From NCBI GenBank assembly GCA_022823725.1, contig JAJEHL010000022.1, positions 15,881-79,880 of the forward strand: 64,000 nt of DNA. The letters are read 5' to 3'. Under the pieces are notes generated by a model that saw nothing but the letters and a program-made list of their open reading frames with translations, had not been told where the DNA came from and ran no database searches. This document shows, piece after piece, positions 17,639 through 54,928 of this stretch (position 1 is its first letter; every line of letters begins with the position of its first letter). The stretch is from Candidatus Latescibacterota bacterium (lineage in GTDB: Bacteria; Latescibacterota; UBA2968). Both the position numbers and the translations under genes were made by a program.

Positions 17639-17736
17639 TGGCGGGAATGTGTGGGAATCGAACCCACCAGGCGTGGGGTTAGCACGCGACAACGGGTTTG
17701 AAGCCCGCGGGGGACACCAGTTCCCCATCCACTCCC
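17639..17736 (-). tRNA. selC: tRNA-Sec (anticodon UCA)
   Basis: Minus strand GGGAGTGGATGGGGAACTGGTGTCCCCCGCGGGC-TTCAAA-CCCGT...GGTTCGATTCCC...ATTCCCGCCA: 98 nt, long variable arm, encoded CCA, directly after selD. Confidence 0.97.
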
Positions 17737-17738
17737 AA

Positions 17739-18782
17739 TCACGCTCGTACCTCAATCTCACCGGGATGTTCTGCAACCACCTCGCCAATATCTCGAGCCA
17801 TCACACCGCGATCGTCTAACGCCTCAAGAAAAGCATTAGCCGCATCGGACGCAAGAGCAATTAACAGACCACCAGAAGTCTGCGGATCAAAAAACAAACG
17901 CCTCAAAGCCTCGTCAACATCATCGGCAAACCTCACCGCATGCCCTCGCGCCTCCCGATTGCGCCGCAAACCACCGCCCTCGCGCCCCTCTGCAATCTGC
18001 AAAGCCAGATCAAAACACGGCACATTAGAAGCGCGAATCCGAAACCCAACGCCACTCGCCTGCGCCATCTCCAACCCATGCCCGATCAACCCAAACCCCG
18101 TAATATCCGTACACCCGTCCGCATTGAATGCAACCATCTCCTCGGCTGCAATGCGATTCAACTGCACCATAGAATCCACGGCAATCTGCAAAGCATCTTC
18201 ATCGATCTCGCCATTTTGATAGGCATCCGACAACAAACCCGTACCCAGCGGCTTGGTCAAAATGAGACGATTACCCACCCGAGCACCTGCATTGGTCTTC
18301 ACATCATCTGGATGCACAACCCCCGTAACAGACAAACCGTACTTGGGTTCCACATCCTCCACAGAATGCCCACCGACCAGAACCGCACCGGACTCCGTCA
18401 CCTTCTCCTGTGCCCCTTTTAAAACCTCGGCAATCACCTCTGGCTCGACATCATCACTCGGAAACCCGCAAATATTCAGCGCAGTAATCGGACGCCCCCC
18501 CATCGCATACACATCGCTCAGCGAATTTGCTGCCGCAATCTGCCCATACGCATGCGGATCATCGACAATAGGCGTAAAAAAATCCACCGTCTGAATAAGA
18601 GCCACATCCTCAGAAATCCGAAACACGCCAGCATCATCAGCCGTATTCATCCCCACCATCAAATCGGGATGCGCCACACGCGGCAAATTTTTCAAAATCA
18701 CATCCAGCACCGCTGGATCGAGTTTCGATGCTCAACCACCGCAACTGACGAGCTGAGTCAATCTTTTAGCGCGATACTTCAT
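17739..18782 (-). CDS. selD: Selenide, water dikinase (selenophosphate synthetase), Sec-containing
   Basis: True start ATG 18782: MKYRAKRLTQLVSCGG-U(TGA 18734-18732)-ASKLDP, then DDAGV, TVDFFTP, GGHS, DITGFGL, DPQTSGGLL. Confidence 0.95.
18702..18718 (-). promoter_or_regulatory. Bacterial SECIS hairpin of selD
   Basis: ATCCAGC-GGT-GCTGGAT starting 13 nt after the UGA. Confidence 0.8.
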
Positions 18783-19609
18783 TTTTTTATTTCCTCATCT
18801 TCTCTCGCCATCTGTTCCTTTTGCCAGCGATAATCGACCTTGCCATCGTAAAACATCCCGGGGTTCTCTATCGCCCACAACTGCTTTCGAATCAACCAAT
18901 TCTTGGGATCCAGAACATAAGCGCGCTTTAATTCTGCAATCGCGTCTTCGCGCTTGCCCTGTTTTAGCAACGCGATAGCGCGCTGAAATATTGCATCGGC
19001 CTCCCGCTCATCCGCAGTCAGCGCGCGGGGTTTCGCACCCTCATCCGCATCGCGCCAGACACTGGGAACAACTCCCGATGTTATCCACTCAACCAGTTCT
19101 CCGCGCAGGGTCTCATTATCAATACTCACGCTACCAACACTGCGGACAAGTCGTCCTTCTTCATCCACAAAAATCCCAACCGGCACAAATTTCACATTAT
19201 ACGCCTTACCAATCGCATTGTGCTGATCCAGCAATGCGCGATATGTACCACCGGCTTTTTCAACCCAGGGTCTGGCAACCTCGGCACCCTGGGCATCCTG
19301 AGCAATGACCACCACCTCAACCTGCTCACCGTACTCCTGATAAAACGCTTGCCATCCAGGCAACTGAGCGCGGCACCCTCACCAGGACGCCCACATAAAA
19401 AACGCCGTCTTCTTCCCGCGAAAATCACTCGAAGAAATCATCTCCCCAGAATACAAATCCGGCAGTGTAAACGCAGGCGGCACCTGCCCAATGCTCAAAC
19501 CAATGTCATTCAGTTCAGACTCCAAAGTCTTCACAAATTCCTCCCCGGACAGGATATGAATAGGGATGAGTACACTCACCAGGATCAATACAAATGATAT
19601 TTTTTTCAT
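18779..19609 (-). CDS. Exported TlpA/AhpC-type redoxin selenoprotein (W-U-G-C) with C-terminal TPR, 276 aa
   Basis: Track ORFs 19379..19609 and 18779..19363 are in frame, separated only by TGA 19381-19379 plus 5 codons. Reads signal peptide, GQVPPAFTLPD, FFMWASW-U-GCRAQLP, YNVKFVP, TPR. Its stop overlaps the selD ATG (ATGA). Confidence 0.88.
19349..19363 (-). promoter_or_regulatory. Bacterial SECIS hairpin of the redoxin gene
   Basis: TTGCC-TGGAT-GGCAA starting 15 nt after the UGA. Confidence 0.7.
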
Positions 19610-41136: not shown

Positions 41137-42264
41137 ATGAGCAAAGCGCGTCAAATCTACGAAGACCTGGGCGTTGTCCCTGTAATCAACGCATCGGGAT
41201 ATCAGACCGTCATTGGCGGGTCGCGAGTAGGCACAGAAGTGCAAGCCGCAATGGACATAGCGAATCGCTACTTTGCGGACATGGAAGCACTACTCAAAAA
41301 AACCGGCGCAATCATCGCCGACACCCTCAGCGCAGAAGCGGCAATGGTCACACCTGGATGCGCGGCAGCATTAGCCCTCAGCTCAGCCGCCTGCATGTCG
41401 GGCAGCGACCCCGAGAAAATGGAACAATTGCCCGACACAACGGGCATGAAACATCACATTTTAATACAAAAAAAACAGCGCTATCACTACGACCCGGTAC
41501 TCACTGTCTTCGGCGCCAAACTCATCGAAGTAGGCGATGAAAACGGAACAACCGAAGCCCAACTCGAAGCCGCCATATCAGACCAGACCGCAGCCATCCA
41601 CTATTTCGCACCCGGAGGCCAGGCAGGCGTCCTATCCCCCGAAGACGTCGTCCGCATCGCCCACGCCAACGGGATACCCGTCATCGTCGATGCAGCGAGC
41701 CAGGTCTATCCCCTCGAAACCATGCTAAAATATCCCGACATGGGCGCAGATCTAATCGGCTACGGCGCAAAATACATTGGCTCGTGTCACTCCACAGGCA
41801 TCTTGTGTGGACGCAAAGACCTCATCGACGCCGCCTTTCTCCACTCCTTCATCGGTTATGAAACCTGCCCTTACGACACCATAGGCCGCCCGCTAAAAGT
41901 AGATCGGCAAGAAGTCATCGCCGTCGTCGTTGCCCTGCGCGAATGGTTCAGCATGGACCACGAAACGCGCCTATCCGAATACAAACGCAAAGCCGAAGCA
42001 CTACTATCAGACCTGAAAGACATCCCCCACATCGCAGCCAAATTCTCGGCCGACTCACGAGGCCTGAGCGATGGCGTACACATCACAGTCGATGAAACCG
42101 CACTGGGCAAAACCGCAGCGCAAATAATCGAAGAACTTCGACAGGGCAATCCATCCGTATGGACACGCGGCAGCGCAAACACCTTCCGCGTCGCCGTAAC
42201 CAACTTCATCGAAGACGACCAGGAAATCGTCACCGCACGCCTGCGCGAAATACTGACCGGATAA
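41137..42264 (+). CDS. SelA-like / DgaE family PLP-dependent enzyme (probably not true SelA)
   Basis: VINASG..T.IGGS, VDAAS, YGAKYIG (PLP Lys), GRPLKV.RQE; 375 aa, with no N-terminal tRNA-binding extension. Confidence 0.8.
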   Translation: MSKARQIYEDLGVVPVINASGYQTVIGGSRVGTEVQAAMDIANRYFADMEALLKKTGAIIADTLSAEAAMVTPGCAAALALSSAACMSGSDPEKMEQLPDTTGMKHHILIQKKQRYHYDPVLTVFGAKLIEVGDENGTTEAQLEAAISDQTAAIHYFAPGGQAGVLSPEDVVRIAHANGIPVIVDAASQVYPLETMLKYPDMGADLIGYGAKYIGSCHSTGILCGRKDLIDAAFLHSFIGYETCPYDTIGRPLKVDRQEVIAVVVALREWFSMDHETRLSEYKRKAEALLSDLKDIPHIAAKFSADSRGLSDGVHITVDETALGKTAAQIIEELRQGNPSVWTRGSANTFRVAVTNFIEDDQEIVTARLREILTG

Positions 42265-42290
42265 CTTGCCACACAAAATCCCAACATAAA

Positions 42291-42322
42291 AAACGCCATC
42301 AGCTATTTTGCCGATGGCGTTT
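42291..42322. terminator. Bidirectional terminator
   Basis: AAACGCCATC / GATGGCGTTT between convergent genes. Confidence 0.8.
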
Positions 42323-42338
42323 GTGCTTATAACCTCTC

Positions 42339-43124
42339 TCAACCCCGTGCGAGATCGCGATACGCCCTGAACAGATCGGAATAATAAGCCACAAACATCC
42401 ACAGATCGCCCACCCCCTTATCGGGACGCCGCTCTGTCTCTGCCGACATGTAGCCCTCATAGCCCTTCTCGTGCAGCAGCCGGAACAACTCGCGATACGG
42501 ATAGCCCTGTCCCGCCAGATCGTGCATATGCACGTGATCCAGCCAGGGCCACACCATATCCAATGCCTGTTTCACAGATCCATCCACCACATCTTGCGGC
42601 ACCGAATTCCACACCAACCCAAAATTCTCGTGATCCACCTGCTCGGCCACTGCCCGGCATGCTTGCCAATCGAACTCACCGTGCAACTCCAGGCAGGGCT
42701 TTACCCCCTTCTCAGCACCGTAATCACACAGCGGCTTCAGGGCCTTTGCCACCTGAGCAATCGTCTGTTCCCTGGGCACTTCTGCTGGAAAATTATTCCC
42801 AAACACGCGCACGCGAGGCGCGCCCAGATCAGACGCCAGATCCATCCGAACCATCGTCTGCTCAATATGATCTCGAAGCTCGTCCGGATCCGTATCGTGA
42901 TACCGATTGCCAGTCGCAATACTCATAATATCGATCCCCATCGCCTCACAATCTGCCACCACCTGCTCTCGTTCTGCCTCGTCAATTGACGCCTCCACCC
43001 CGTGACCATGCCCCGCATCCGTGCGAAACTCCACCCCCTCAAACCCATGATCCTTCAACATCTGCAACAAATCCCGTCGGGAAAGATCCTTCAAAACACC
43101 ATAAGTCATCCACGAAGGTTTCAT
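42339..43124 (-). CDS. Sugar phosphate isomerase/epimerase (TIM barrel)
   Basis: GFEGVEFR, LELHG, HVHMHD, SAETE. Confidence 0.85.
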   Translation of the reverse strand: MKPSWMTYGVLKDLSRRDLLQMLKDHGFEGVEFRTDAGHGHGVEASIDEAEREQVVADCEAMGIDIMSIATGNRYHDTDPDELRDHIEQTMVRMDLASDLGAPRVRVFGNNFPAEVPREQTIAQVAKALKPLCDYGAEKGVKPCLELHGEFDWQACRAVAEQVDHENFGLVWNSVPQDVVDGSVKQALDMVWPWLDHVHMHDLAGQGYPYRELFRLLHEKGYEGYMSAETERRPDKGVGDLWMFVAYYSDLFRAYRDLARG

Positions 43125-43219
43125 GCTTATTCTCCTATTGAGTTAAAATTGCCTATCTCGATCAACTGGGCACCTGCAACAAAATCAACATCTTTTACGT
43201 CCTTATCCCGCCAGATATA

Positions 43220-43247
43220 TTGACAAACGGGCAGGTTGATCTATAAT
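43220..43247 (+). promoter_or_regulatory. Consensus sigma70 promoter for the R-M gene
   Basis: TTGACA-16 nt-TATAAT. Confidence 0.7.
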
Positions 43248-43310
43248 ATACTGAAAGGGTAGAAAACCTGGTGGATTTTCCATATCCAAAACCATCTAAA
43301 ATCTCACCGC

Positions 43311-45854
43311 GTGACTACTCCCAACGCTGAAGCTGTTGGGCTTTACGGGCTATTAGGTAAAATGATAGATATCAATGGACAACGCAATATACTGGACCAG
43401 GTTGATCTTCTTAGATATAACCTCGTTGTAAATGGCAAAAAGAAAAACCACCTCGGCCAGTTCTTTACTCCTGCTCCGATAGCTGAGTTCATGGCACAGA
43501 TGTTTCGCATATCAGAAGCCTCTGTTCATTTACTCGATGCTGGTGCTGGAATAGGGTCTCTTTCTGCTGCTTTTGCCGATTATGTCTGCACACAGAAGCA
43601 TCTCCCGAAGGAATTTACAATCACAGCCTATGAAATTGATGCTTCATTGACGCCACTTTTAGAAAATACATTGAACGCTTGCCGCTCAAAATGTGAGCAA
43701 CTGGGCATCCATTTTAGCTACAAAATAATCAATGAAGATTTTGTCAAAGCTGCTACATCTGCACTCAGACAAGATCTGTTCTCTCCCCATGTCAAAAAGT
43801 TCAATTATGCTATTCTCAATCCCCCTTACAAAAAAATCCAGAGTTCTTCTGAACACAGAAAATTATTGCGTCGCCTTGGGATTGAAACGAGCAATCTTTA
43901 TACAGCCTTTCTTGCAATAATAAAAAAATTATTAACTGACAAAGGACAACTCGTTGCAATTACACCGAGAAGCTTCTGCAATGGACCTTATTTCAAAGCA
44001 TTTAGAAATGACTTTCTTAAAGAAATGGCATTAAAGAGAATTCACATCTTTGAATCCAGAAAAAGGGCCTTCAGCGATGATGGTGTGCTGCAAGAAAACA
44101 TCATTTTTCAGGCGATCAAATCTAAGGCAAAACCATCAGAGATAGCGATTTCATCTCATTCATCTCCAGGAGACCCTCTATTCTGGAGAGATGTTGAACA
44201 TGACCAGGTGATACATCCAGAGGATCCCGATAAGTTCATTCACATCATTACAGATGAGATGGACCATCAAATAGCCGAAAAGATGAAGCATTTTCAATCA
44301 ACTCTGGAGGAGCTTGGCATTTCGGTGTCAACGGGCAGAGTGGTTGATTTTCGAGCGGACAAATTCTTGAAACAGGTGCCAAATAAAAAAACCGTGCCCT
44401 TAATTTATCCCATGCATTTCCAGCAAGGTTTTATTGAATGGCCCCCCAAAAACAGCAAGAAACCCCATGCCATTATTTTTTCAGAAGAATCCAAAAATTT
44501 ATTGGTCCCGTCTGGCACGTATGTTTTAGTAAGGCGTTTCTCTACAAAGGAAGAAAAGCGCAGGATCGTAGCTGCTATCTATGATCCAGAGCGAATAAAA
44601 TCAGAAACAGTAGGCTTTGAGAACCATCTGAATTATTTCCATTGCAATGGAAAAGGACTGCCTACAAGCCTTGCAAAAGGACTGGCAGTTTTTCTCAATT
44701 CAATGATGGTTGACGCTTACTTCAGATTGTTCAACGGCCATACTCAGGTAAATGCTACGGACTTGAGAAGTCTAAAATACCCTTCAAGAGTAAAACTCGA
44801 ATCTCTGGGGGAAAAAATTAAGGACAGATTACCGGATGACGATGCGTTAGATAATTTAATTGAGCAAGAGGTCTTTGATATGGCAAATGAAAGCGGGAAA
44901 CCAGATCCAATCAAAAGCAAACAAAAGATAGAAGCGGCACTCGCAATACTGAAATCTATTGGTATGCCAGGTGCTCAGCAGAATGAGCGTTCAGCATTAA
45001 CCCTGCTGGCATTGATCGATGTAAAGTCTGAAACGCAGTGGGAGGATGCGAATAATCCTTTGATCGGCATTACACCCATCATGAATTTTGCGGCTGACCA
45101 TTATGGGAAACAATACGCACCAAATACGAGAGAGACCGTTAGAAGACAGACAGTACATCAGTTTTTGGATGCTGGCATTATCCGCATCAACCCCGATGTT
45201 CCCAATAGACCGACCAACAGCCCTAATACGGTATATCAAATTGAAGACTCTACTCTTGACCTGATCCGCTCTTATGGCAGTGCAAACTGGAATGAAGAAT
45301 TAGAGAAATTCCTGCTATCAAGAGAGACTTTGCAAGCGAAGTATGCACAGGAACGTCAGGAACGAAAAATCCCCGTTGATATATCAAACACAATCCAGGT
45401 AAATCTCTCCCCTGGGGGACAAAACGAGCTTGTTAAGAAAATCATTGAGGATATGTTTCCCAATTTCGCACCTGAAGGCACGATAATCTATCTTGGGGAT
45501 ACTGCCAGCAAATTTGCCTATTTTGACCGGAAAGCACTTGAAATGTTAGGTGTAGATATTGAAGACCACGGTAAGATGCCAGATGTGGTCATTCATCATA
45601 AGAAAAAAAATTGGTTGCTGCTTATCGAAGCTGTAACCAGTCATGGTCCTGTTGATCCAAAACGTCGAGGAGAGTTGCAAAAACTCTTTGAAACCTCAAA
45701 AGCAGGACTTGTTTTTATTACAACATTTTTGACTCGAAGAGATATGATGAGATATCTCCCTGAAATCTCCTGGGAAACAGAAGTCTGGATCGCTGAATCT
45801 CCGACGCATATGATACATTTTGACGGGGAGAGGTTTTTAGGGCCTTATGAATGA
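43311..45854 (+). CDS. Fused N6-adenine methyltransferase + BsuBI/PstI-family restriction endonuclease
   Basis: LGQFFTP, DAGAGIG, NPPY, GHTQVNATDL in the N-terminal ~520 aa. From Met524: ERSALTLLAL, RETVRR, MPDVV...IEAVTSHGP, SWETEVW. Alternative start ATG 43362. Confidence 0.9.
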   Translation: MTTPNAEAVGLYGLLGKMIDINGQRNILDQVDLLRYNLVVNGKKKNHLGQFFTPAPIAEFMAQMFRISEASVHLLDAGAGIGSLSAAFADYVCTQKHLPKEFTITAYEIDASLTPLLENTLNACRSKCEQLGIHFSYKIINEDFVKAATSALRQDLFSPHVKKFNYAILNPPYKKIQSSSEHRKLLRRLGIETSNLYTAFLAIIKKLLTDKGQLVAITPRSFCNGPYFKAFRNDFLKEMALKRIHIFESRKRAFSDDGVLQENIIFQAIKSKAKPSEIAISSHSSPGDPLFWRDVEHDQVIHPEDPDKFIHIITDEMDHQIAEKMKHFQSTLEELGISVSTGRVVDFRADKFLKQVPNKKTVPLIYPMHFQQGFIEWPPKNSKKPHAIIFSEESKNLLVPSGTYVLVRRFSTKEEKRRIVAAIYDPERIKSETVGFENHLNYFHCNGKGLPTSLAKGLAVFLNSMMVDAYFRLFNGHTQVNATDLRSLKYPSRVKLESLGEKIKDRLPDDDALDNLIEQEVFDMANESGKPDPIKSKQKIEAALAILKSIGMPGAQQNERSALTLLALIDVKSETQWEDANNPLIGITPIMNFAADHYGKQYAPNTRETVRRQTVHQFLDAGIIRINPDVPNRPTNSPNTVYQIEDSTLDLIRSYGSANWNEELEKFLLSRETLQAKYAQERQERKIPVDISNTIQVNLSPGGQNELVKKIIEDMFPNFAPEGTIIYLGDTASKFAYFDRKALEMLGVDIEDHGKMPDVVIHHKKKNWLLLIEAVTSHGPVDPKRRGELQKLFETSKAGLVFITTFLTRRDMMRYLPEISWETEVWIAESPTHMIHFDGERFLGPYE

Positions 45855-45929
45855 TATTTTATTTTTTTAAAAATGGCGGATCAGTGCGTCAATATAAAAG
45901 GTAGGGAATTGAAGATAGGATGATGCGAC

Positions 45930-46739
45930 TTATTCCAGATCGGGGAGTTCCTCACGGGACAGGAGCAGCTTGATTGAGCGCGCTTGGCGGGGAACTCTCG
46001 ATATAAGACCGCGTTTTTCCAGGGTTTTGAGCATGCTGTTAACGGAAGGGCCTGTGATGCCAAAATACCTCTGTATATCTGCCTGGGCCGGGGGATAACC
46101 GTTCAACTTCGTATAATAATAGATAAATGTCAGATATTGTCCCTGTCTATGGGTATATACTGGTGCCTTCTCTCGCTTGAAGACCTTGTAGCAGTCGAGA
46201 AAAGATAGCATCCGATTGCTTTCCTCAAGATCAAAATTTTCGGGATCGAATAGCTCTCCTATCCACTCTGAATACATTTCATGCTCTGGATGATTTTTGT
46301 TCTGAAGTGCGCTTAAACATTCCTCGTACCCCCAAACGCCACCCACATCCTCTGGTGGGCATGCGCGTTTTCCCGTCAGACAGATAGGATAAAACACCCC
46401 GGCTTCTGGCTCCTTGATCTGTTCAACCCGAATCATGTGTTCCCAGCTATCACCGAAATCATATTCATATATGATTTGCGCCCCAACCTCAACGGCGACC
46501 TGCTGAAGAGAGGTTTCGTTTGCATTTCGATTATCCATTCCCCAGTCTAACATGCCTGGATAAGGGGTGCTATAATAGGTATCGTCAACGATGAATTGGT
46601 GAAGATGAGAATCTGTCCATCCCATCACAATCTGAATCACCTGGTGCAATTCTCCAAGTGAGATGTTGCCATCAACCTCAACTCGCCGCCATATCGGCGG
46701 TCTGGAACCCGTTAGAGTAATTTTGAGTCGATAGATCAT
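45930..46739 (-). CDS. Plasmid pRiA4b ORF-3 family protein with C-terminal LexA-like winged HTH
   Basis: PPIWRR, HLHQF, YEYDFGDSWEH, GKRACPPEDVGG; then T.RQGQYL.FI...PP...I...F.IT..SV..ML..LE.RG.I.R. Confidence 0.85.
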   Translation of the reverse strand: MIYRLKITLTGSRPPIWRRVEVDGNISLGELHQVIQIVMGWTDSHLHQFIVDDTYYSTPYPGMLDWGMDNRNANETSLQQVAVEVGAQIIYEYDFGDSWEHMIRVEQIKEPEAGVFYPICLTGKRACPPEDVGGVWGYEECLSALQNKNHPEHEMYSEWIGELFDPENFDLEESNRMLSFLDCYKVFKREKAPVYTHRQGQYLTFIYYYTKLNGYPPAQADIQRYFGITGPSVNSMLKTLEKRGLISRVPRQARSIKLLLSREELPDLE

Positions 46740-47877
46740 GATGTATTCCTTTTAAAACTCCCAATGCACTTGAGACAGATTTTGCGATTGCATAACCCAC
46801 CGGTGGACAAACAGAATTGCCAATTTGCCCAAGCATCTGGTAAGCTGCGCCTTGAAAAATCCAATCTTCTGGGAATCCCTGAAGAAGCGCACAATCCTGA
46901 ACAGAAAGCCTGAAATGACCATTCTCCGGGGGAAACATCATGGCTTCTTCTCTGGACTTTTGCACGCCATTGGGCCAAATCTGGAGTTTTTCCCACACCT
47001 TTTGACTCGCCTTACTATTCAAAATGCTGGTCGATTTTCTGGGACCAGTGAAGCCAGAGCGAAGCGTAGGCGCAAAGCAATCAAAACCAATATCTTCCAG
47101 ACCCAAAGCAGCCCTCGTTCCCATCGTATGTCTGCCAGAGTAGAACAAGCTATCTTTGGAGAAATGGGTCGGTTCAGGAATTTTGTAGCGATTGACTACT
47201 TGGAGAGACCGAAAGCCAACAAAAATAACTCGCTTCCTGATTTGTGGCACGCCGAAGTCGGATGCGACAGCTTCGAACTTTACGATGTGATAATGCGGTG
47301 TCAGTGGCGCGAGAATCACCTCGTTTACATACTTATCGAACTTTGGATTGAGCAAGCCTGGAACATTCTCAGCAATGAAAGCCTCGGGCATGAGCGTTAG
47401 CAAAGCATCAATAAATGCGGGCCACATATCTCTGTCGTCTTTGCTCCCACTCTGCTTTCCGGCAATTGAAAAAGGCTGGCAGGGAGGACCTCCGTGAATG
47501 AGATCTACTTTACCCTTATATGTTGACCAATCTGTTTTTGTAACATCACCCTTTGAGCCATACAGAACGCTCCATTGCGGACGGTTTTGTTGGAGTGTTG
47601 CGCCACAAATATCCAGGATATCAAAACTGGCAACATGCTCAAACCCTGCATATTCAAAACTAAGATCCAAACCGCCACCACCCGAAAAGAGAGAGAGGGA
47701 TCTCAAGCCGTTTTGTCGTTGTTTTGGCATCAACTTCTCTGGTTTCAGAACAGGCTTATTGATTCTGCCCAGTTCCTGTTGCAACTCACCATTGATTGCG
47801 GCCTTCTTCCTGAGTCTGGATCGAGTAGAAATCTCTCGATACCACTCCCGTTTGGCCTCCGATATATCGTATGGCAT
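46678..47877 (-). CDS. DNA (cytosine-5) methyltransferase, no adjacent cognate endonuclease
   Basis: LFSGGGGLDL, GGPPCQPFS, ENVPG, PQIRKRV, QGFP, IGNSVCP. Confidence 0.93.
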   Translation of the reverse strand: MPYDISEAKREWYREISTRSRLRKKAAINGELQQELGRINKPVLKPEKLMPKQRQNGLRSLSLFSGGGGLDLSFEYAGFEHVASFDILDICGATLQQNRPQWSVLYGSKGDVTKTDWSTYKGKVDLIHGGPPCQPFSIAGKQSGSKDDRDMWPAFIDALLTLMPEAFIAENVPGLLNPKFDKYVNEVILAPLTPHYHIVKFEAVASDFGVPQIRKRVIFVGFRSLQVVNRYKIPEPTHFSKDSLFYSGRHTMGTRAALGLEDIGFDCFAPTLRSGFTGPRKSTSILNSKASQKVWEKLQIWPNGVQKSREEAMMFPPENGHFRLSVQDCALLQGFPEDWIFQGAAYQMLGQIGNSVCPPVGYAIAKSVSSALGVLKGIHHDLSTQNYSNGFQTADMAAS

Positions 47878-47986
47878 TATTTTTTCTCTAATCTGTTGGA
47901 ATAAACGACAACTCTGTACAAAGTATAGCTATGCTTATCCGTTTTGCCCACCCTAAAATACGCAACATCATCAGACTTCATAGATC

Positions 47987-49096
47987 CTATAACCTGTCCA
48001 CCTGCGTCTCTCCGCGCTTCAGCTCTTCCATAAGCTCATCGTATTGATCCCGATCAACCGGAAATGCAACCTCCTCTTTTCGTATAGCCGAAAGCACAAT
48101 CGCGTTAATCAACTCCAGTGTTCGCCGCGCCGTCACCCCATCTGTAATCGCCTCGCCACCATCCAGAATCGCGGAAACAAAACTCTCCACCAGTGTTTGC
48201 CCGCCCTCATCGGACGGCACATCCTCCCAGCTAATACCTGGCTGATGCCCCTTTGCCCCCTTTATAAACGCCCGCATAGGCGCCTCGTACCGCCCCAGCC
48301 GAAACACATCTGGCACCTTTGAATTGGCATTCTTCTCATCCCGAAACTCAATCGTACCCAGATCCCCTGAAATCTGCCTGTAATTCAACCGTCGATCACA
48401 CGTACTCAACTGCACATTCGCATGGGCACCACAGGCAAAACGGATATTGGCAACAACCGTATCCTCAATCTCCACCCGATGACCCCAATTGCACATCATC
48501 GCAGAAACCGCAACCGGATCGCCCACCATCCAGCACAGCAAATCCAGATCGTGGCTGGTCTGATTCATCAGCACCCCGCCCCCTGCGTGCTCCCAGGTAC
48601 ACCGCCAGATATCCCGGTCGTAATACACCTCTGGCCGCGTCTCAATCCACATCCACAGCACCCGGTAAATCTCTCCCAGTGCCCCCTCATCAATCAGCCG
48701 CTTCAACGCGCGATTGCCGGGAAACGTGCGATAATTGTGTCCCACCGCCAGCTTCAGATCCCGCGCCTGCGCCGCCTCAATCATCCTATCCGCTTCGGAA
48801 ACCGTATTCGCAATCGGTTTCTCCACAAAAGTATGCAACCCCGCCTCCAGACAATCCAACCCCATCGGCGCGTGGAGATGGTGCGGCGTTGCAATCACCA
48901 CCGCATCCAGATCCTCGGACGCGATCATCTCCCGGTAATCGCCCCAGGCGCGCGCACCCCGCTCTTCCCCAACCTGCCGCGCATAATCCAGATCCAGATC
49001 CGCCACCGCCACCAACTCCGCCCGATCCAGTCCTGAAATCTCCCGTACATGCTGCCCGCCCATACCCTTCAAACCGACCACACCGAACCTGACCAT
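47987..49096 (-). CDS. Gfo/Idh/MocA family oxidoreductase
   Basis: VVGLKGMG, EKP, GGGVLMNQTSHDLD. Start moved to 49096. Confidence 0.9.
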   Translation of the reverse strand: MVRFGVVGLKGMGGQHVREISGLDRAELVAVADLDLDYARQVGEERGARAWGDYREMIASEDLDAVVIATPHHLHAPMGLDCLEAGLHTFVEKPIANTVSEADRMIEAAQARDLKLAVGHNYRTFPGNRALKRLIDEGALGEIYRVLWMWIETRPEVYYDRDIWRCTWEHAGGGVLMNQTSHDLDLLCWMVGDPVAVSAMMCNWGHRVEIEDTVVANIRFACGAHANVQLSTCDRRLNYRQISGDLGTIEFRDEKNANSKVPDVFRLGRYEAPMRAFIKGAKGHQPGISWEDVPSDEGGQTLVESFVSAILDGGEAITDGVTARRTLELINAIVLSAIRKEEVAFPVDRDQYDELMEELKRGETQVDRL

Positions 49097-49114
49097 AACG
49101 CTCTCCTTGATATG

Positions 49115-49140
49115 AGGGGCGAGGCATGCCTCGCCCCTAC
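49115..49140 (-). repeat. GTAG-type REP palindrome (single copy in the window)
   Basis: Minus strand GTAG-GGGCGAGGCATGCCTCGCCC-CT, a perfect palindrome. Confidence 0.6.
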
Positions 49141-49251
49141 GGTTGCTTTTCGCGCCTGATAGCTTATTTGCAGCACAGTACACCCATCAGACATATTGAC
49201 AAACAACGTGTCAATCCATAATATTCAAAAAACAAACTCGGAGGACTCCCC

Positions 49252-49815
49252 ATGCCCAACACCTTCCAAAATCGCGCCGAAGCCTTTGCCTGGCTCAGCC
49301 AAAATGACCCCCGTGCGCCCAAAGCAGGAGATCCCGCGCCAGACTTTGAACTATCGGACATCAACGGCGAAAACCCCGTGCGCCTCTCGCAACTATGCAA
49401 AGACAAACCCGTTGCACTCATCTTTGGCAGCTTCACGTGACCGCCCTTTGTCCGCGAGGCGGTCAGCCTCCGCGACCTCTATGCAACATATCACAAACAG
49501 GTACACTTTCTCGTAATCTATATCCGCGAAGCCCATCCAGAAGACGGCTGGAAACTCAAAGACACGGGCATCTACGACCCAAAAACCCTTGCGGAACGCC
49601 GAAAAGTTGCAAAAACATGCGAAAATGCTATGCAATACGGCATACGCACCTATGTTGACGACATGGACGACGCTGTCATGAACGACTATGTCGCCTGGCC
49701 CGAACGCCTCTACCTCATCGGCACGGACAACCGCATCGCCTACGCGGGCAAACACGGTCCCTATGGATTCAGCCCCGAAGAACTCAAAGCGGCAATAGAT
49801 CACATCACCCGTTGA
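49252..49815 (+). CDS. Iodothyronine deiodinase-like selenoprotein (Sec at TGA 49438-49440), 187 aa
   Basis: Track ORFs 49252..49440 and 49630..49815 share a frame. Readthrough gives GDPAPDF...FGSFT-U-PPF...YIREAHPEDGW...YVAWPERLYLI...GPYG, the deiodinase signature. Confidence 0.92.
49450..49476 (+). promoter_or_regulatory. Bacterial SECIS hairpin of the deiodinase-like gene
   Basis: GAGGC-GGTCA-GCCTC upper stem 15 nt after the UGA, with extendable lower pairing. Confidence 0.75.
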
Positions 49816-51272
49816 AATTTCTCAAACGCCTCGTCCCAGGCATCCGTATCCGTCGGGCTATACGTCTTAATCGCCGTAGAAGCGCGCACAATATCGCGCA
49901 ATTCATCCAAAGAGCCAATCTGCCCTTTGCCCATCGCCTGCATCAAAAGATTGCCCATTGCAGTCGCTTCAGCCGGACCTGACAGCACCGCACGCCCCGT
50001 TGCAGAAGCGATAAACTGGCACAAAAGCGTATTGTGAATGCCCCCACCCACAATGTGAATATCGCCGAGCGTCTTACCCAATACATCTTCGAGCTGACCC
50101 AGAACATAGCGACACTTGAGCGCCAGACTCTCCAGTGCCGTGCGAATAATATCCCCTTCGCTACCGGGTATCGATTGACCCGTGCGCCTGCAAAAATCCC
50201 GAATGCGAGACGGCATATCCCCGGGCGTACCAAAATCAGCGTGATCCGGATCGATAAACGACGCGAGCCGATCCGATTCCATTGCCAGCCCCATCAACTC
50301 CTCCCACGAATAATCCTTCCCCGCCAAAGCCCACACGCGGCGGCACTCCTGCACAATCCACAGCCCCGAAATATTTTTCAGAAATCGAATCGTATGATCA
50401 ACACCGCCCTCATTGGTAAAATTGTGCGCGAGCGCGCGCTTATTAATCGCGGGTTCAGGCAACTCCGCCCCCATCAACGCCCATGTGCCACAACTGATAT
50501 AAACCGCATCGGGTGAAGAAAGGGGCACAGCCGCAACCGCCGACCCCGTATCGTGACAAGCCGGTGCAATCACATCAACAGGCGCAATACCCATCTCATC
50601 CGCAATGCTCTTGCGAACAGGACCAAGCACCGTACCTGGCGACACCACATCCGGAAGCATATCCGTGGGAATATCGAGCGCATTGAGCATTGATTTTGCC
50701 CAGGCATTCTCGCGCGGATTGTAAAACTGCGTAGTCGTTGCATTGGAATACTCACACACCTTCATACCCGTGAACCAGAAATTGAACAAATCGGGCATCG
50801 TGAGAAACGTACGCGCAATATCGAGCTGAGGCGACTGCGCGAGACGCTGCGCGAGCAACTGATAAAGCGTGTTAAGCTCCATAAACTGAATACCCGTCTG
50901 CTCAAAAATCTCCTCGCGAGAAACGCGCTCAAACGCGACATCCATCATCCCCTGTGTGCGCTCATCGCGGTAACAAAAGGGATTGCCGAGCAAATTGTCC
51001 TGCGCGTCGAGCAAGCCATAATCGACCCCCCACGTATCACAGCCCATGCCATTGAGCGGTTCTCCGGACCGAACAGCGAGACGCAACCCCGTACACATCT
51101 CGTCAAACAGCCGCAGCGCATCCCAATAATAATGATTGCCAACAGGTATTCCCTGATTCGGAAAACGATGAATCTCTTCAATATCCAGACGCGCGCCATC
51201 AAAACGACCCAAAACAGCCCGACCGCTGGACGCGCCCAAATCATAAGCGAGATAATTGGTCGTCGATGCCAT
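49800..51272 (-). CDS. rhaB: Rhamnulokinase (FGGY family)
   Basis: AYDLGASSGR, DTWGVDYGL, HDTGSAV, SCGTW, GGGIHN, GPAEATA. Confidence 0.88.
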   Translation of the reverse strand: MASTTNYLAYDLGASSGRAVLGRFDGARLDIEEIHRFPNQGIPVGNHYYWDALRLFDEMCTGLRLAVRSGEPLNGMGCDTWGVDYGLLDAQDNLLGNPFCYRDERTQGMMDVAFERVSREEIFEQTGIQFMELNTLYQLLAQRLAQSPQLDIARTFLTMPDLFNFWFTGMKVCEYSNATTTQFYNPRENAWAKSMLNALDIPTDMLPDVVSPGTVLGPVRKSIADEMGIAPVDVIAPACHDTGSAVAAVPLSSPDAVYISCGTWALMGAELPEPAINKRALAHNFTNEGGVDHTIRFLKNISGLWIVQECRRVWALAGKDYSWEELMGLAMESDRLASFIDPDHADFGTPGDMPSRIRDFCRRTGQSIPGSEGDIIRTALESLALKCRYVLGQLEDVLGKTLGDIHIVGGGIHNTLLCQFIASATGRAVLSGPAEATAMGNLLMQAMGKGQIGSLDELRDIVRASTAIKTYSPTDTDAWDEAFEKFQRVM

Positions 51273-51370
51273 AAAAAACTCCATTTTTCACATTGTGTTT
51301 ATACAATTCAGTGGCTATTATAGGACGCAGTTGGAAAGTGTCAAGTATTTCGTTATCAGGAGTGTGTATT

Positions 51371-52987
51371 ATGAGCAAAGATTTGAAAGCAATTTTTGAT
51401 TTTTGGAAGCGTTTTGCGTGTCAAAGCGGTCTGCATCGCCGCGATTTAATCAAAGGCGTCGCCGCCGCAAGTCTCGGTCTGGCAGCCGGAACCTTTGGTG
51501 CGCCACAACTCTACGGAAATTCAAACGCATCGAAATCAAAACGACGCAATCGCATCCAACTCGAAAACGCCGAGCGTGGAACGCGGGACTGGATGCTCAC
51601 CAAGACACGCCAGCTTCCGGGGAAGATCAATCCCATCTTGACCAACGGGCGCTGCCCGTGGATTGAAGGGTATTGCTCGGCGAACAGCATTCGAGCTGGC
51701 GAGAAGTTGCAGATTATGGTGAGCACGGCTCCAGCATCCGCGTTCAAGTTGGAGATCTTTCGGACCGGTTACTACAACGGGGATGGGGGGCGGCTTGTTC
51801 GTACTTATGATGCGCTCGAAGGCACCCAGCAGCCGGACCCGCCCATCGATGAAAACTACCTGCGCGAATGCAGTTGGAAGCCCTCTGTGGAATTCGAGAT
51901 TCCCGAAGATTGGCTGAGCGGCGTCTACCTGGGGAAACTGACGGAAGAGACCAGCGGAATTCAGAGCTACGTCATCTTCATCGTCCGCGATGATCGCCCC
52001 TGCGATCTGCTGTTTCAATGCAGTGACCTGACCTGGTCTGCCTACAACCGCTGGCCTGCCGATTTCTCTATTTACACAAAACATGAAGGGTATTCCAGCA
52101 CCGGTGTGCCCAGCGGGACAGTGAGCTTCGATCGGCCCTACGGCTTGTTTACCCACCCCGTCAACAAGCACAAGACCTCCGGTGGCTCCGGCGAATTCCT
52201 GCCCTGGGAATTCCCATTGTCCTTTTGGCTGGAGCAACACGGGTACGATGTTTCCTATATCTCCAATATCGACACGCACGCCGACCTCGCGGGTTTGCTG
52301 CGCACCAAAGGGTTCATTTCGGTGGGGCACGACGAGTACTGGACTTTGGACATGTACGACAATGTGCTCAAAGCCCGTGACGAAGGCGTGAACCTGGCGT
52401 TTCTAAGCGCCAATTCAGTTCTCTGTGTAGTACCGCTGCTGCCTTCCGCAAACGGTACGCCCAACCGCGCCACGCGCAGAGAAGGCTGGTTCTTTCCATC
52501 CGAATACCACAGCAGGGTCGAACAAAGAACGCACAATCAGAAAGGTTTTCAACCCAACATGGGTCCCGATGGCGCACAATTAATGGGGGCACGGTGGACT
52601 CCCCCCGGTAGAGGAAGCGGCGATTGGACATGCGCCATGCCAGAACACTGGCTTTTTGAAGGGACCGGGATGGAAAAGGGAGATTCGGTCAAAGGTCTCG
52701 TTGGCTGGGAGTGGCACGGTGCTCCCGCGATGGACCTGCCCGGAATGCAAGTCGTTGCTGAAGGCGAAACACTGATCAACGGCAAAAATCCGGGCCATTA
52801 TACCGCAACCGTTTACGACGGGCCAAAAGGCAACATCGTGTTCAACTGCGCCACCATCTGGTGGGCCAATGGTTTGTCCAGCCCACCGGGGCACGTCAAC
52901 CCATCAAGGCATGGGGTAACGCAACAAGGCCCAGACGAGCGCGTCCAGCAAATTACTCACAATCTGTTTCAACGCTTTATTGGGTAA
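51371..52987 (+). CDS. Tat-exported N,N-dimethylformamidase beta-subunit-like domain protein
   Basis: RRDLIK Tat motif, IEGYCS, TWSAYN, VSFDRPY, GHDEYW, VFNCATIWW. Start moved to 51371. Confidence 0.75.
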   Translation: MSKDLKAIFDFWKRFACQSGLHRRDLIKGVAAASLGLAAGTFGAPQLYGNSNASKSKRRNRIQLENAERGTRDWMLTKTRQLPGKINPILTNGRCPWIEGYCSANSIRAGEKLQIMVSTAPASAFKLEIFRTGYYNGDGGRLVRTYDALEGTQQPDPPIDENYLRECSWKPSVEFEIPEDWLSGVYLGKLTEETSGIQSYVIFIVRDDRPCDLLFQCSDLTWSAYNRWPADFSIYTKHEGYSSTGVPSGTVSFDRPYGLFTHPVNKHKTSGGSGEFLPWEFPLSFWLEQHGYDVSYISNIDTHADLAGLLRTKGFISVGHDEYWTLDMYDNVLKARDEGVNLAFLSANSVLCVVPLLPSANGTPNRATRREGWFFPSEYHSRVEQRTHNQKGFQPNMGPDGAQLMGARWTPPGRGSGDWTCAMPEHWLFEGTGMEKGDSVKGLVGWEWHGAPAMDLPGMQVVAEGETLINGKNPGHYTATVYDGPKGNIVFNCATIWWANGLSSPPGHVNPSRHGVTQQGPDERVQQITHNLFQRFIG

Positions 52988-53007: not shown

Positions 53008-53200
53008 GTCAACTACCACCGCCAGAGGCGGTGGCTTGTAGCTGTCACACCCCGAGGGGCGATTCGCTACATTAGGCTTGTTGACACAAAGCCCTTGCTC
53101 GGATGTTCCGAGCAGCGTTGCGGTCAGCATGGTCTTTATGACCACACACTTTGCACTGGAAGGATGCTTGGGTAGGTCTATTGTCTTTCTCACAATGCCC
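53008..53200 (-). ncRNA. Putative TnpB omegaRNA/reRNA scaffold (guide taken from the flank beyond 53008)
   Basis: Structured right end (CGCCCCTCGGGGTG; CCACCGCC/GGCGGTGG) overlapping the tnpB 3' end, as established for TnpB elements. The 5' limit is a guess. Confidence 0.6.
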
Positions 53201-54163
53201 GCATTCGGCACATGTCTGGCTGGTATATTTGGGGTCAACAGGTTCTATGTGGATACCAACACGTTTGGCCTTGTATTCGATAAAGGTGCGAAGTTGGAAG
53301 AAAGACCACCCAGACATCTTTGCACGCTGAGGCTTGCGAAACCGTTTCTGGCTCTTGCGTATGCCTTCGAGGTCTTCAAGAGCAATCGCTTTGCCAGTGT
53401 CTTTGGCCTTCTCAACGATGCGTTTAGAGAAGATATGGTTGGTGTTTCTACGAAACCTGCTCTCCCGGCCAGAGATGGCAGAGAGTTTTCTGCGAACATT
53501 CTTGGGTCTCTTGCCTTGCTTGACAAGGGCAGACGCTTTCTGTTGGAGCAACTTTTTCAGATCGTGCATCTTCTGGCGGACGTTTTCAACTGTGTCGCCG
53601 GAAAAAGTCTCGCCATCATCGGTGACAGCGATGTTCGTCACGCCGAGATCAACGCCGATAAAATCAGTAGCAGGTATTGGCGTACCATCAGGAACATCTA
53701 CAGAGACAAGCAAGAACCACTTGCCGTCTTTGCGGAGCACAAGGTCTGCTTGTCCTTTGGCATAGCCGAACTGCTCACGCTGGTAATTGCCCATAAGCAT
53801 CGGCACAAGCACGCGCCCTTCCAACGTGAGCAGAGATACCTGGTCTATGCCCTTGAAGCTATACAGGCGTTGATCGTAAGGCATACCAGCATGGCGACGA
53901 AACGACGGTTGCACCGCTTTGTCGCGCTTATACGCCTCTACAACCTGGGCAATACAGCGACACGCCATCTGGGACGAAAGGCTAAATCGCTCGCGCAACT
54001 CGTAGTAATATAGCTTGTGTAACGCAATGCCGTTTGCCAGCTTGCGCTCATAAGCCTTCGGTGCAAGCCAATTGGCAGCTTCGTTGAACCGCTCAACAGT
54101 CGCTTTTAACCTCTGTGCTGTGTCCGTATCCGGTAGCAGTTGTGTTTGTAAAGTAAGTATCAT
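53072..54163 (-). CDS. tnpB: RNA-guided endonuclease TnpB, 363 aa
   Basis: RuvC-I IGVDLG, RuvC-II ALEDL, Zn finger TSQTC..CG...C..CG, RuvC-III HADRNAARNI. Start moved to ATG 54163. Confidence 0.95.
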   Translation of the reverse strand: MILTLQTQLLPDTDTAQRLKATVERFNEAANWLAPKAYERKLANGIALHKLYYYELRERFSLSSQMACRCIAQVVEAYKRDKAVQPSFRRHAGMPYDQRLYSFKGIDQVSLLTLEGRVLVPMLMGNYQREQFGYAKGQADLVLRKDGKWFLLVSVDVPDGTPIPATDFIGVDLGVTNIAVTDDGETFSGDTVENVRQKMHDLKKLLQQKASALVKQGKRPKNVRRKLSAISGRESRFRRNTNHIFSKRIVEKAKDTGKAIALEDLEGIRKSQKRFRKPQRAKMSGWSFFQLRTFIEYKAKRVGIHIEPVDPKYTSQTCAECGHCEKDNRPTQASFQCKVCGHKDHADRNAARNIRARALCQQA

Positions 54164-54170
54164 ATTGATA

Positions 54171-54198
54171 ACTATAATCAGTATGAAATGTTTGTCAA
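54171..54198 (-). promoter_or_regulatory. sigma70 promoter of tnpB inside the left end
   Basis: TTGACA-16 nt-TATAGT. Confidence 0.65.
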
Positions 54199-54265
54199 CA
54201 TCCACTTTTACGGCAAAGCCCAGTTTCTCTGACCACGCCCAAAGGACGTGGGTTCCGCAGGTAAA

Positions 54266-54928
54266 ATGAAAAAAAAGGGAGATGTCCGGCTCCATGTGGA
54301 TCATATCGTGCGCGCTGGCCACGCTTTCCGAAGAACGCCCCAAGGAGGTATCGTCTTACAGGAGAAACTGTGGGAGGCCCTCTCGCAATTTGTGGGTCCA
54401 AATGTGCCAAAGGGCCCGTTGGTTGACCCCGGCAAAGAATACTTCAAGGTCAACAGAAAGACGCGACGCTTTGAGAAACTTGAGCTGAAAGACGGCATGC
54501 ATCCATTCAGCATGGATATGCCAGTCGGCATCATGAGAGGCGATACCATCACACTGGTTTGCACGGGAGAACCAGGAACCACCTATCGCGTAGAACTCAG
54601 CCCGGTAGAAGGCCTTGATGCACCCGGTTTCGAAACAAAGGGAGAGATTGCGGCAGACACAAGTATGAGAGGCGTGAGTCTTATAGAAGTGCCACTGGAT
54701 CAGCCCCTTGGCAGATACCGATATCGCCTGTGGATCAAGAAACCAGGCCAGGAAGAAGTGGAATTGGACAAGAGCCATACCGTATCAGGCGGAGGAGCCT
54801 TTATGGAAATATGGGATGAGAAATCGGCAGACAACATCGTGAGCGGCGACCACGTCTGGCGTAAACTCTATCTACCGCTCTTGCCAAAAAAGCTCGGGCC
54901 TGTAGGCTGGGGATTCTCTGAATATTAG
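54266..54928 (+). CDS. Hypothetical protein, possibly a 5'-truncated gene remnant
   Basis: Coding-like ORF that begins immediately outside the IS left end. N-terminal VRLHVDHIVRAGHAF recalls the C-terminal His loop of alpha/beta hydrolases. Confidence 0.5.
   Translation: MKKKGDVRLHVDHIVRAGHAFRRTPQGGIVLQEKLWEALSQFVGPNVPKGPLVDPGKEYFKVNRKTRRFEKLELKDGMHPFSMDMPVGIMRGDTITLVCTGEPGTTYRVELSPVEGLDAPGFETKGEIAADTSMRGVSLIEVPLDQPLGRYRYRLWIKKPGQEEVELDKSHTVSGGGAFMEIWDEKSADNIVSGDHVWRKLYLPLLPKKLGPVGWGFSEY

Follow-up and report, generated by a model that had tools for sequence, protein, structure and literature searches.

Does the in-frame TGA at positions 49438-49440 of the 64,000-nucleotide stretch analysed here (contig JAJEHL010000022.1 of a Candidatus Latescibacterota bacterium; this whole stretch is called the window below) break a gene into two fragments, or does it encode selenocysteine (Sec) in a bacterial relative of the iodothyronine deiodinases (DIOs), and what would such a protein do? 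An earlier note, made from the sequence alone, had put forward a hidden, soluble selenoprotein of the deiodinase type. We find that the gene product is almost certainly a member of the iodothyronine deiodinase family read through a Sec-UGA, a judgement that covers family identity and recoding together; the proposals for its chemistry are more tentative. Specifically, translation of 49252-49815 on the plus strand gives one frame, opening with the ATG at 49252 and closing with the TGA at 49813-49815, in which codon 63 is the sole internal stop:

49252..49815, plus strand: deiodinase-family selenoprotein gene, 187 codons and a TGA stop, with one internal Sec-UGA
49438..49440, plus strand: Sec codon UGA (codon 63) in FGSFT-U-PPF, TGA in 79/79 relatives

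The frame reads ...KPVALIFGSFT*PPFVREAVSL...VIYIREAHPEDGWKL...DYVAWPERLYLIG..., with FGSFT*PPF at residues 58-66, YIREAHPEDGW at residues 90-100 and YVAWPERLY likewise in frame. The three motifs that readthrough of the UGA had been said to restore, FGSFT-U-PPF, YIREAHPEDGW and YVAWPERLY, are thus recovered exactly at the positions assigned to them.

For the profile and structure searches, Cys was written in place of Sec at codon 63. The Pfam T4_deiodinase model (PF00837) gives the readthrough product 107.5 bits (E 8.6e-31; gathering score 27), and a single alignment that runs through the UGA pairs residues 24-183 with profile positions 74-234 of 237, as the earlier note, which had named this hidden Markov model (HMM) as a check, would have it. 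The C-terminal 124 residues alone reach E 1.8e-22 with PF00837, and the N-terminal 62 residues alone yield sub-threshold AhpC-TSA/Redoxin matches only. The full readthrough product also scores above gathering with AhpC-TSA (PF00578; 35.6 bits, gathering score 26) and with Redoxin (32 bits). Additionally, the NCBIfam model NF038285, 'deiodinase family protein' (deiodinase_rel), gives 181.8 bits (E 2.4e-53), which is under its cut-off of 250; alignment is confined to positions 175-340 of 347, so that about 174 N-terminal positions are without a counterpart. Because NF038285 is matched through its C-terminal half only, the window protein represents a shorter, single-domain form.

In line with the profile matches, a sequence search against the PDB places the catalytic core of mouse Dio3 (4tr3, E 1e-22) and Dio2 (9h48, E 7e-15) at the top. 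The AlphaFold2 model of the protein has a mean pLDDT (predicted local distance difference test score) of 85.3 and a pTM (predicted template-modelling score) of 0.85, with low confidence only at residues ~91-110, where a flexible omega-loop is expected. Among 1433 Foldseek matches of this model, 4tr3 ranks first (template-modelling (TM) score 0.75, 32% identity) and 9h48 second (TM 0.73, 25%), followed by ResA/TlpA-type oxidoreductases and AhpE/BCP peroxiredoxins.

Relatives were collected by scanning one genome per GTDB species, and the best 80 of at least 592 matches were examined. These 80 come from Candidatus Latescibacterota, Poribacteria, Chloroflexota/Anaerolineae, Gammaproteobacteria, Planctomycetota, Desulfobacteraceae and others, and the Latescibacterota orthologues are 91-97% identical to the window protein. 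Codon 63 is TGA in 79/79 loci with a locatable site, and the residues that flank it on both sides are conserved in frame. Vertebrate DIOs carry Sec at the equivalent position, and the internal UGA of the window gene falls exactly at the position of their catalytic Sec. In a database search with 536 matches, most relatives are C-terminal fragments of about 120 residues that begin just past the UGA and are labelled 'hypothetical protein', which agrees with the expectation that standard annotation splits the gene. One database entry, P0012, is a true Cys form, the sole one among these entries, with Cys at the Sec position.

Searching 1.84 billion cluster representatives with a profile extended the family to 7425 proteins at E <=1e-3, 311 of them at E <=1e-30. 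In this wider family Cys occupies the Sec position in 134/143 long top matches, which typically read FG(S/N)xTC(G/P)PFR and then Y(I/V)REAHPxDGW; the Sec-type U-P-P-F proteins are therefore one clade of a large prokaryotic family. Many Cys-type proteins are fused to EF-hand pairs, long TPR arrays, CMD/AhpD-like domains or ceramidase-like domains. These fusions assign no function: they vary too much among themselves and are too remote from the window clade. Two of the Cys-type proteins P0121-P0269, namely P0121 and P0125, contain two deiodinase-type stretches each.

Downstream of the UGA, at a distance of 18 nt on its 3' side, lies a hairpin that resembles a bacterial selenocysteine insertion sequence (SECIS):

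49450..49476, plus strand: SECIS-like hairpin, core stem 49456-49460/49466-49470, loop GGUCA at 49461-49465, lower stem GUC/GAC

For the analysis of the hairpin, 74 sequences spanning the UGA were aligned without gaps, and RNAalifold was run on them unguided. RNAalifold returned a 5-bp stem (49456-49460/49466-49470) closing a 5-nt loop (49461-49465), and within this apical loop the second base, G49462, is invariant and the third base, U49463, is present in at least 90% of the sequences. When the helix is extended to the core, the GUC/GAC stem and one further pair, 84.7% of cells are paired, as against 34-49% in a control in which the 3' partners were slid by 1-3 columns. Double-sided changes occur at 6/9 helix pairs, and the observed covariation score was reached by 0/500 shuffles. 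Pair 28-36, in particular, is A-U in 40, G-C in 23 and a mismatch or wobble in 6 distinct sequences (Fisher p 8.5e-13, a value not corrected for phylogeny). Its 5' base opens a Thr/Ala codon and its 3' base is a synonymous third position in Ser AGU/AGC; because the 3' partner is synonymous, protein constraint cannot account for the correlation. Counted from the U of the UGA, the loop G-U is reached after 24-25 nt, a distance nearly identical to that of the critical G23 and U24 of E. coli fdhF. The bacterial SECIS is typically recognised by a G in a small apical loop that follows the UGA directly (PMC1088965). The terminal TGA at 49813 is without a comparable hairpin.

An alternative hairpin, UGACCGCC/GGCGGUCA (49438-49465, UGA included), was rejected as a functional element, because it is broken in close relatives (GGCAGUUA, L001, L003 and others) in which the downstream stem is kept. 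As a perfect 8-bp pairing, UGACCGCC/GGCGGUCA is possible in the window and in two close relatives, L002 and L005, where it would sequester the UGA and compete with the SECIS stem.

The window also encodes two parts of the selenocysteine machinery:

17639..17736, minus strand: tRNA-Sec (anticodon UCA), found by ARAGORN and by Rfam RF01852 (68.5 bits against a gathering score of 47)
17739..18782, minus strand: selD (selenophosphate synthetase), Pfam AIRS and AIRS_C, with an in-frame Sec-UGA at 18734-18732

The selD gene lies 2 nt upstream of tRNA-Sec, and its translation contains MKYRAKRLTQLVSCGG*ASKLDP, with an in-frame TGA in SCGG-U-ASKL at the position of what we take to be the active-site Cys17 of E. 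coli SelD. A standard open reading frame (ORF) call begins selD past this UGA, at 18710. When the window was scanned for other selenoproteins as ORFs with an in-frame UGA, SelD alone was found; the remaining candidates are adjacent genes or noise.

These observations allow two other accounts of the internal TGA to be weighed. The locus could be a pseudogene, that is, a Cys-type gene broken by a TGC/TGT to TGA nonsense mutation that left two short ORFs, and standard callers do split the gene and leave fragmentary database entries. Such a mutation, however, would hardly be kept in 79/79 relatives of several phyla with both halves conserved in one frame, nor would it be followed by a covarying hairpin and accompanied by tRNA-Sec and a Sec-containing SelD within the window. 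Alternatively, the genome could use another code (table 4 or 25) in which UGA is read as Trp or Gly, and the full-length database entries P0001-P0011 indeed show W at the Sec site. The DNA of P0001 nevertheless has TGA there, and the record is not reproduced by table 11 translation, so that its W is an artefact of an alternative-code gene call. Moreover, TGA terminates 14/42 long non-overlapping ORFs in the window, the selenoprotein gene included, which implies the standard code with local recoding, and the homologous residue is Cys in Cys-type relatives and Sec in vertebrate DIOs, not Trp or Gly. In view of the conserved TGA, the hairpin, the machinery and the standard stop usage, both accounts are rejected, and we assign each of them a negligible probability.

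Some findings do count against recoding through this hairpin. The loop G and U also open a conserved Val codon, and folding of the hairpin in single sequences is only mildly better than in shuffles (z -1.2 to -2.5); the minimum-free-energy fold of 49430-49510 does not clearly surpass its shuffles (z -1.2) and offers two competing hairpins of ~-14.5 kcal/mol. Rfam, searched with the window at gathering thresholds and with the locus at E <=10, returned no SECIS family and only tRNA-Sec, a null result that is uninformative because the conserved core comprises no more than five stem pairs and a loop of 5 nt. Neither SelA nor SelB turned up among the ORFs scanned in the 64-kb window; their genes would lie outside it. 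Taken together, the profile match, the fold, the conserved TGA, the covarying hairpin, tRNA-Sec with a Sec-containing SelD, and the literature all point to a soluble, Sec-containing bacterial protein of the deiodinase family, and in this respect the earlier note was right.

Proteins of this kind were first reported in 2005, when 'deiodinase-like' selenoproteins with a bacterial SECIS and Cys homologues were described from the Sargasso Sea metagenome (Zhang, Fomenko & Gladyshev, PMC1088965), and they were found again in the Global Ocean Sampling (GOS) data in a 2008 survey (PMC2398784); the earlier note also called them known from metagenome surveys. The 2005 describers suggested a redox role, because thyroid hormones were unexpected in bacteria (PMC1088965). 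The biological functions of the family are still listed as largely unknown in reviews of 2022 and 2026 (PMC9312934, PMC13188914), in keeping with the earlier statement that it has no established substrate. The window gene is an ordinary member of the family described in 2005, with near-identical orthologues in public metagenome-assembled genomes (MAGs).

How much of the deiodinase active site does the window protein retain? Residues were mapped by HMMER alignment to 4tr3, cross-checked with the family HMM; invariance was counted in 68 Sec-type relatives below 80% identity, and residue roles were taken from PMC11592359 and PMC9141512. The mapping places two features of note on the gene:

49519..49551, plus strand: YIREAHPEDGW (residues 90-100), edge of the loop-D insertion specific to DIOs, mapped by HMMER on 4tr3
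49618..49620, plus strand: Cys123, candidate resolving cysteine, invariant in 68/68 Sec-type relatives

FGSFT-U-PPF and the FGSCT-(U>C)-PPF of 4tr3 pair position by position. Residues S60, T62, U63, P65, Y90, E93, A94, H95, P96, G99 and W100 are invariant in 68/68 relatives, and so are R116, C123, D136, R152, G169 and P170. Several of these are equivalents of Dio3 residues: Ser60 (Ser167 in Dio3), Thr62 (Thr169), Sec63 (Sec170), Tyr90 (Tyr197), Glu93 (Glu200), His95 (His202), Trp100 (Trp207) and Arg152 (Arg260). In the DIOs, Ser, Thr, Tyr, Glu and His serve as a proton relay, roles are also assigned to His202 and Trp207, and the proximal Cys takes part in a selenenyl-sulfide (PMC11592359, PMC9141512). 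Of the Dio3 proton-relay set (PMC11592359), 5/6 members are present, namely S60, T62, Y90, E93 and H95; the sixth, His219 in Dio3, falls on Pro110. Cys123, for which we propose the resolving role, is situated in the helix after loop-D, 60 residues past Sec; its equivalent is present in 95/134 Cys-type representatives and is Leu232 in Dio3. The N-terminal A-P-x-x-G-x-x-A-P-D-F-x-L-x-D module is conserved as well as in peroxiredoxins.

We propose, at a rough probability of 0.6, that the locus as a whole is best explained by a selenoenzyme of 187 residues that works in the cytoplasm and belongs to the iodothyronine deiodinase family. To make it, SelB with Sec-tRNA(Sec) would bind the hairpin on the translating mRNA and deliver Sec at UGA63, as in the established bacterial pathway, and translation would stop at the terminal TGA 49813, which is without a hairpin. 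The Sec63 selenolate would be placed where helix alpha1 of a thioredoxin/peroxiredoxin-like fold begins, flanked by Ser60, Thr62 and the invariant Tyr90-Glu93-His95-Trp100 edge of loop-D. The enzyme may then follow a two-step peroxiredoxin-like cycle, as proposed for the DIOs: Sec63 would attack an electrophilic atom of the substrate to give Se-X or Se-OH, Cys123 would resolve this intermediate to a selenenyl-sulfide, substituting for the absent proximal and distal cysteines of the vertebrate enzymes, and thioredoxin or a low-molecular-weight thiol would reduce the selenenyl-sulfide. We give a redox cycle between Sec63 and Cys123 slightly better than even chances.

The physiological reaction is less clear, and two candidates stand side by side. 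One is reductive dehalogenation, which the earlier note had offered as a testable idea and in which a halonium would be abstracted from a halogenated phenolic compound as by DIO1-3. We slightly favour it, tentatively, because the segment that distinguishes DIOs and is absent from peroxiredoxins is the most strictly conserved one, with the proton-relay residues and the Ser/Thr beside Sec likewise invariant, and because Sec is never replaced in the window clade. The other, about as likely and held just as tentatively, is that the same Sec protein reduces peroxide or performs another thiol/selenol exchange, as an atypical 2-Cys peroxiredoxin with Sec63 as the peroxidatic, Cys123 as the resolving and Arg152 as the activating residue. 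The AhpC-TSA (35.6 bits) and Redoxin (32 bits) scores above the Pfam gathering scores are in line with such an enzyme, as are ResA/TlpA, AhpE and BCP directly behind Dio3/Dio2 in Foldseek, and a redox function is what the original describers proposed (PMC1088965). The invariant G-x-x-A-P-D-F-x-L module, R152 (which we take for the peroxiredoxin-type Arg) and C123 are features of the peroxiredoxin kind, and one Cys-type relative carries a CMD/AhpD-like fusion; both observations suit a peroxidase or a general thiol oxidoreductase equally well. On the other hand, the peroxiredoxin signature P-x-x-x-T/S-x-x-C is only partly kept: Ser60 stands at -3 and Arg152 is invariant, an equivalence of the Arg that is drawn by motif reading only, but position -7 is Leu56 instead of Pro, and Thr62 adjoins the Sec. 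The T4_deiodinase model also scores about 70 bits above AhpC-TSA, and no part of the family is better conserved than the loop-D edge Y-I-R-E-A-H-P-x-D-G-W, an element missing from peroxiredoxins.

Further points tell against a deiodinase-like dehalogenation. The residue at Dio3 His219 is Pro110 in the window protein, and this position is Pro in 109/134 Cys-type representatives. Dio3 Arg275 (Lys241 in Dio2), the proposed clamp for the iodothyronine carboxylate (PMC11592359, PMC9141512), is replaced by His168, and among the 68 relatives by Leu in 42, with Arg in 10 and Pro in 6; Dio3 Glu259 corresponds to a family position occupied mostly by Thr, Asp or Glu. The loss of the substrate-binding Arg275 and of His219 also suits a peroxidase, and because of it we regard iodothyronines as unlikely substrates of the window protein. 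Outside animals, knockout of the DIO homologue of Dictyostelium leaves DIF-1 dechlorinase activity normal (PMC3205185); a dehalogenase role of non-animal homologues therefore cannot be assumed. Our literature search for an experimental study of any bacterial deiodinase homologue found none, and the reviews cited above still place the family among those of largely unknown function. A more specific form of the dehalogenase proposal, which we consider unlikely at present, is that the U-P-P-F/Cys123 clade is a cofactor-free, selenium-dependent cytoplasmic aryl-halide reductase that, without corrinoid or flavin, would take iodine or bromine off natural halophenolics. Its substrates might be halotyrosine-derived metabolites or bromophenols, and its hosts would be uncultured, mostly marine lineages such as Latescibacterota, Poribacteria, Anaerolineae and some Gammaproteobacteria.

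The ATG at 49252 is the first start after the upstream stop, with no in-frame start further upstream, and the protein that begins there aligns end to end with its relatives. Together with the polar first 25 residues and a modelled amphipathic helix at residues 8-21, this agrees with the absence of a membrane anchor noted earlier. Two sequence signals precede the gene:

49240..49245, plus strand: Shine-Dalgarno GGAGGA, read from the sequence, 6 nt 5' of the ATG at 49252
49196..49224, plus strand: sigma-70-like promoter candidate TTGACA-17 nt-TAATAT, from a consensus scan with 10/12 matches, a consensus match only

The selenoprotein gene stands alone on the plus strand, between a divergent Gfo/Idh/MocA oxidoreductase gene (47987-49183, minus strand) and a convergent FGGY sugar kinase gene (49800-51284, minus strand), the 3' end of which overlaps it by 16 nt. 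An antisense ORF of 136 residues at 49393-49803 was treated as spurious, because the plus-strand frame explains all conservation at the locus. When ORFs from the 3-kb flanks of the 80 loci were clustered, the shared neighbours (the Gfo/Idh/MocA oxidoreductase and the FGGY kinase) were confined to about 11 close Latescibacterota relatives, and no gene partner conserved across phyla was found in these flanks. Since the neighbours are common only to close Latescibacterota, gene context gives no functional clue.

Directly upstream of the selenoprotein gene, ~42000-48000 forms a low-GC island (0.42-0.48 versus ~0.54 elsewhere), which looks like a horizontally acquired restriction-modification island and contains:

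43311-45854, plus strand: fusion of an N6-methylase and a BsuBI/PstI-type endonuclease
45930-46739, minus strand: PRiA4_ORF3-like protein with a LexA-type helix-turn-helix
46678-47877, minus strand: C5 cytosine methylase

Beyond the FGGY kinase gene, and adjoining it, 51293-52987 on the plus strand encodes a 564-residue protein with an N,N-dimethylformamidase beta-subunit-like C-terminal domain (DMFA2_C, E 5e-82), and 53072-54343 on the minus strand a TnpB/Cas12f-like protein (OrfB_IS605 with a Cas12f1-like TNB domain). Next to selD, a 194-residue ORF at 18779-19363 on the minus strand has no Pfam match and encloses the whole of tRNA-Pro(CGG) (19017-19108, minus strand); because it contains this tRNA, it can almost certainly be dismissed as a gene. 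Over almost the entire window, nearly all 2-kb bins have a negative GC skew (cumulative skew -5.6) together with a positive AT skew, a pattern that holds although genes lie on both strands and that is consistent with the plus strand being the lagging-strand template throughout the window.

For annotation, the locus should be recorded as one selenoprotein gene (transl_except 49438-49440) instead of two fragments or a pseudogene, and the same correction applies to hundreds of relatives in public MAGs, given at least 592 matches among GTDB species representatives. The analysis also supplies a residue map for a family that has been without a function for about 20 years: strict use of Sec in the window clade, an invariant Cys123, the Tyr, Glu, His and Trp of the loop-D edge kept, and the Arg275/His219 clamp lost. 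Were the protein a dehalogenase, the chemistry of thyroid-hormone deiodination would predate animals, and marine sediments and sponge-type microbiomes would harbour an unrecognised route of organohalogen turnover. Should the aryl-halide reductase proposal hold, thyroid-hormone deiodination would have its bacterial ancestor-type in this clade, and reductive dehalogenation would gain a third enzymatic route beside the reductive dehalogenases and iodotyrosine deiodinase. If it is instead a peroxidase, the animal enzymes would have been recruited from a peroxiredoxin-like antioxidant.

Compared with known systems, the window protein resembles peroxiredoxins and ResA/TlpA in its thioredoxin fold, which includes an N-terminal beta-hairpin module, and in its APDFxL motif. 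In all of them the nucleophile opens helix alpha1, a conserved Arg precedes the beta-strand R-L-Y-L-I, and a distal Cys might serve as the resolving residue. Unlike the window protein, those proteins are without the E-A-H-P-x-D-G-W loop-D insertion, their nucleophile lies in T/S-x-x-C rather than S-x-T-U, and identity to them is 15-25%. With vertebrate DIO1-3 it has in common FGSxT-U-PPF, YIxEAHPxDGW and a thioredoxin fold with a peroxiredoxin-like N-terminal module and the loop-D insertion. It differs from them in having neither an N-terminal transmembrane anchor nor any hydrophobic segment, starting 24 residues before the peroxiredoxin-like module, and in a shorter loop-D. The proximal Cys of DIO1-3 (Cys168 in Dio3, Cys124 in DIO1), which forms a selenenyl-sulfide in DIO1 and DIO3 (PMC9141512), is replaced by Phe61 in the window protein and by Phe/Tyr in the family, and the distal Cys (Cys239 in Dio3; 69-76 residues past Sec) by Ile131 in the window protein and by Ile/Val in the family. 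Its SECIS, moreover, is of the bacterial type and lies inside the coding region, whereas that of vertebrate DIOs is in the 3'-untranslated region. The closest likeness is to the bacterial deiodinase-like family, which shares PF00837, the in-frame UGA with a SECIS bearing a loop G, Cys homologues and a mostly marine distribution. From the exemplar motif UxxC of the reviews, the window clade is set apart, by motif description only, through its U-P-P-F/Y: it has no Cys within four residues of Sec and carries instead an invariant Cys 60 residues downstream.

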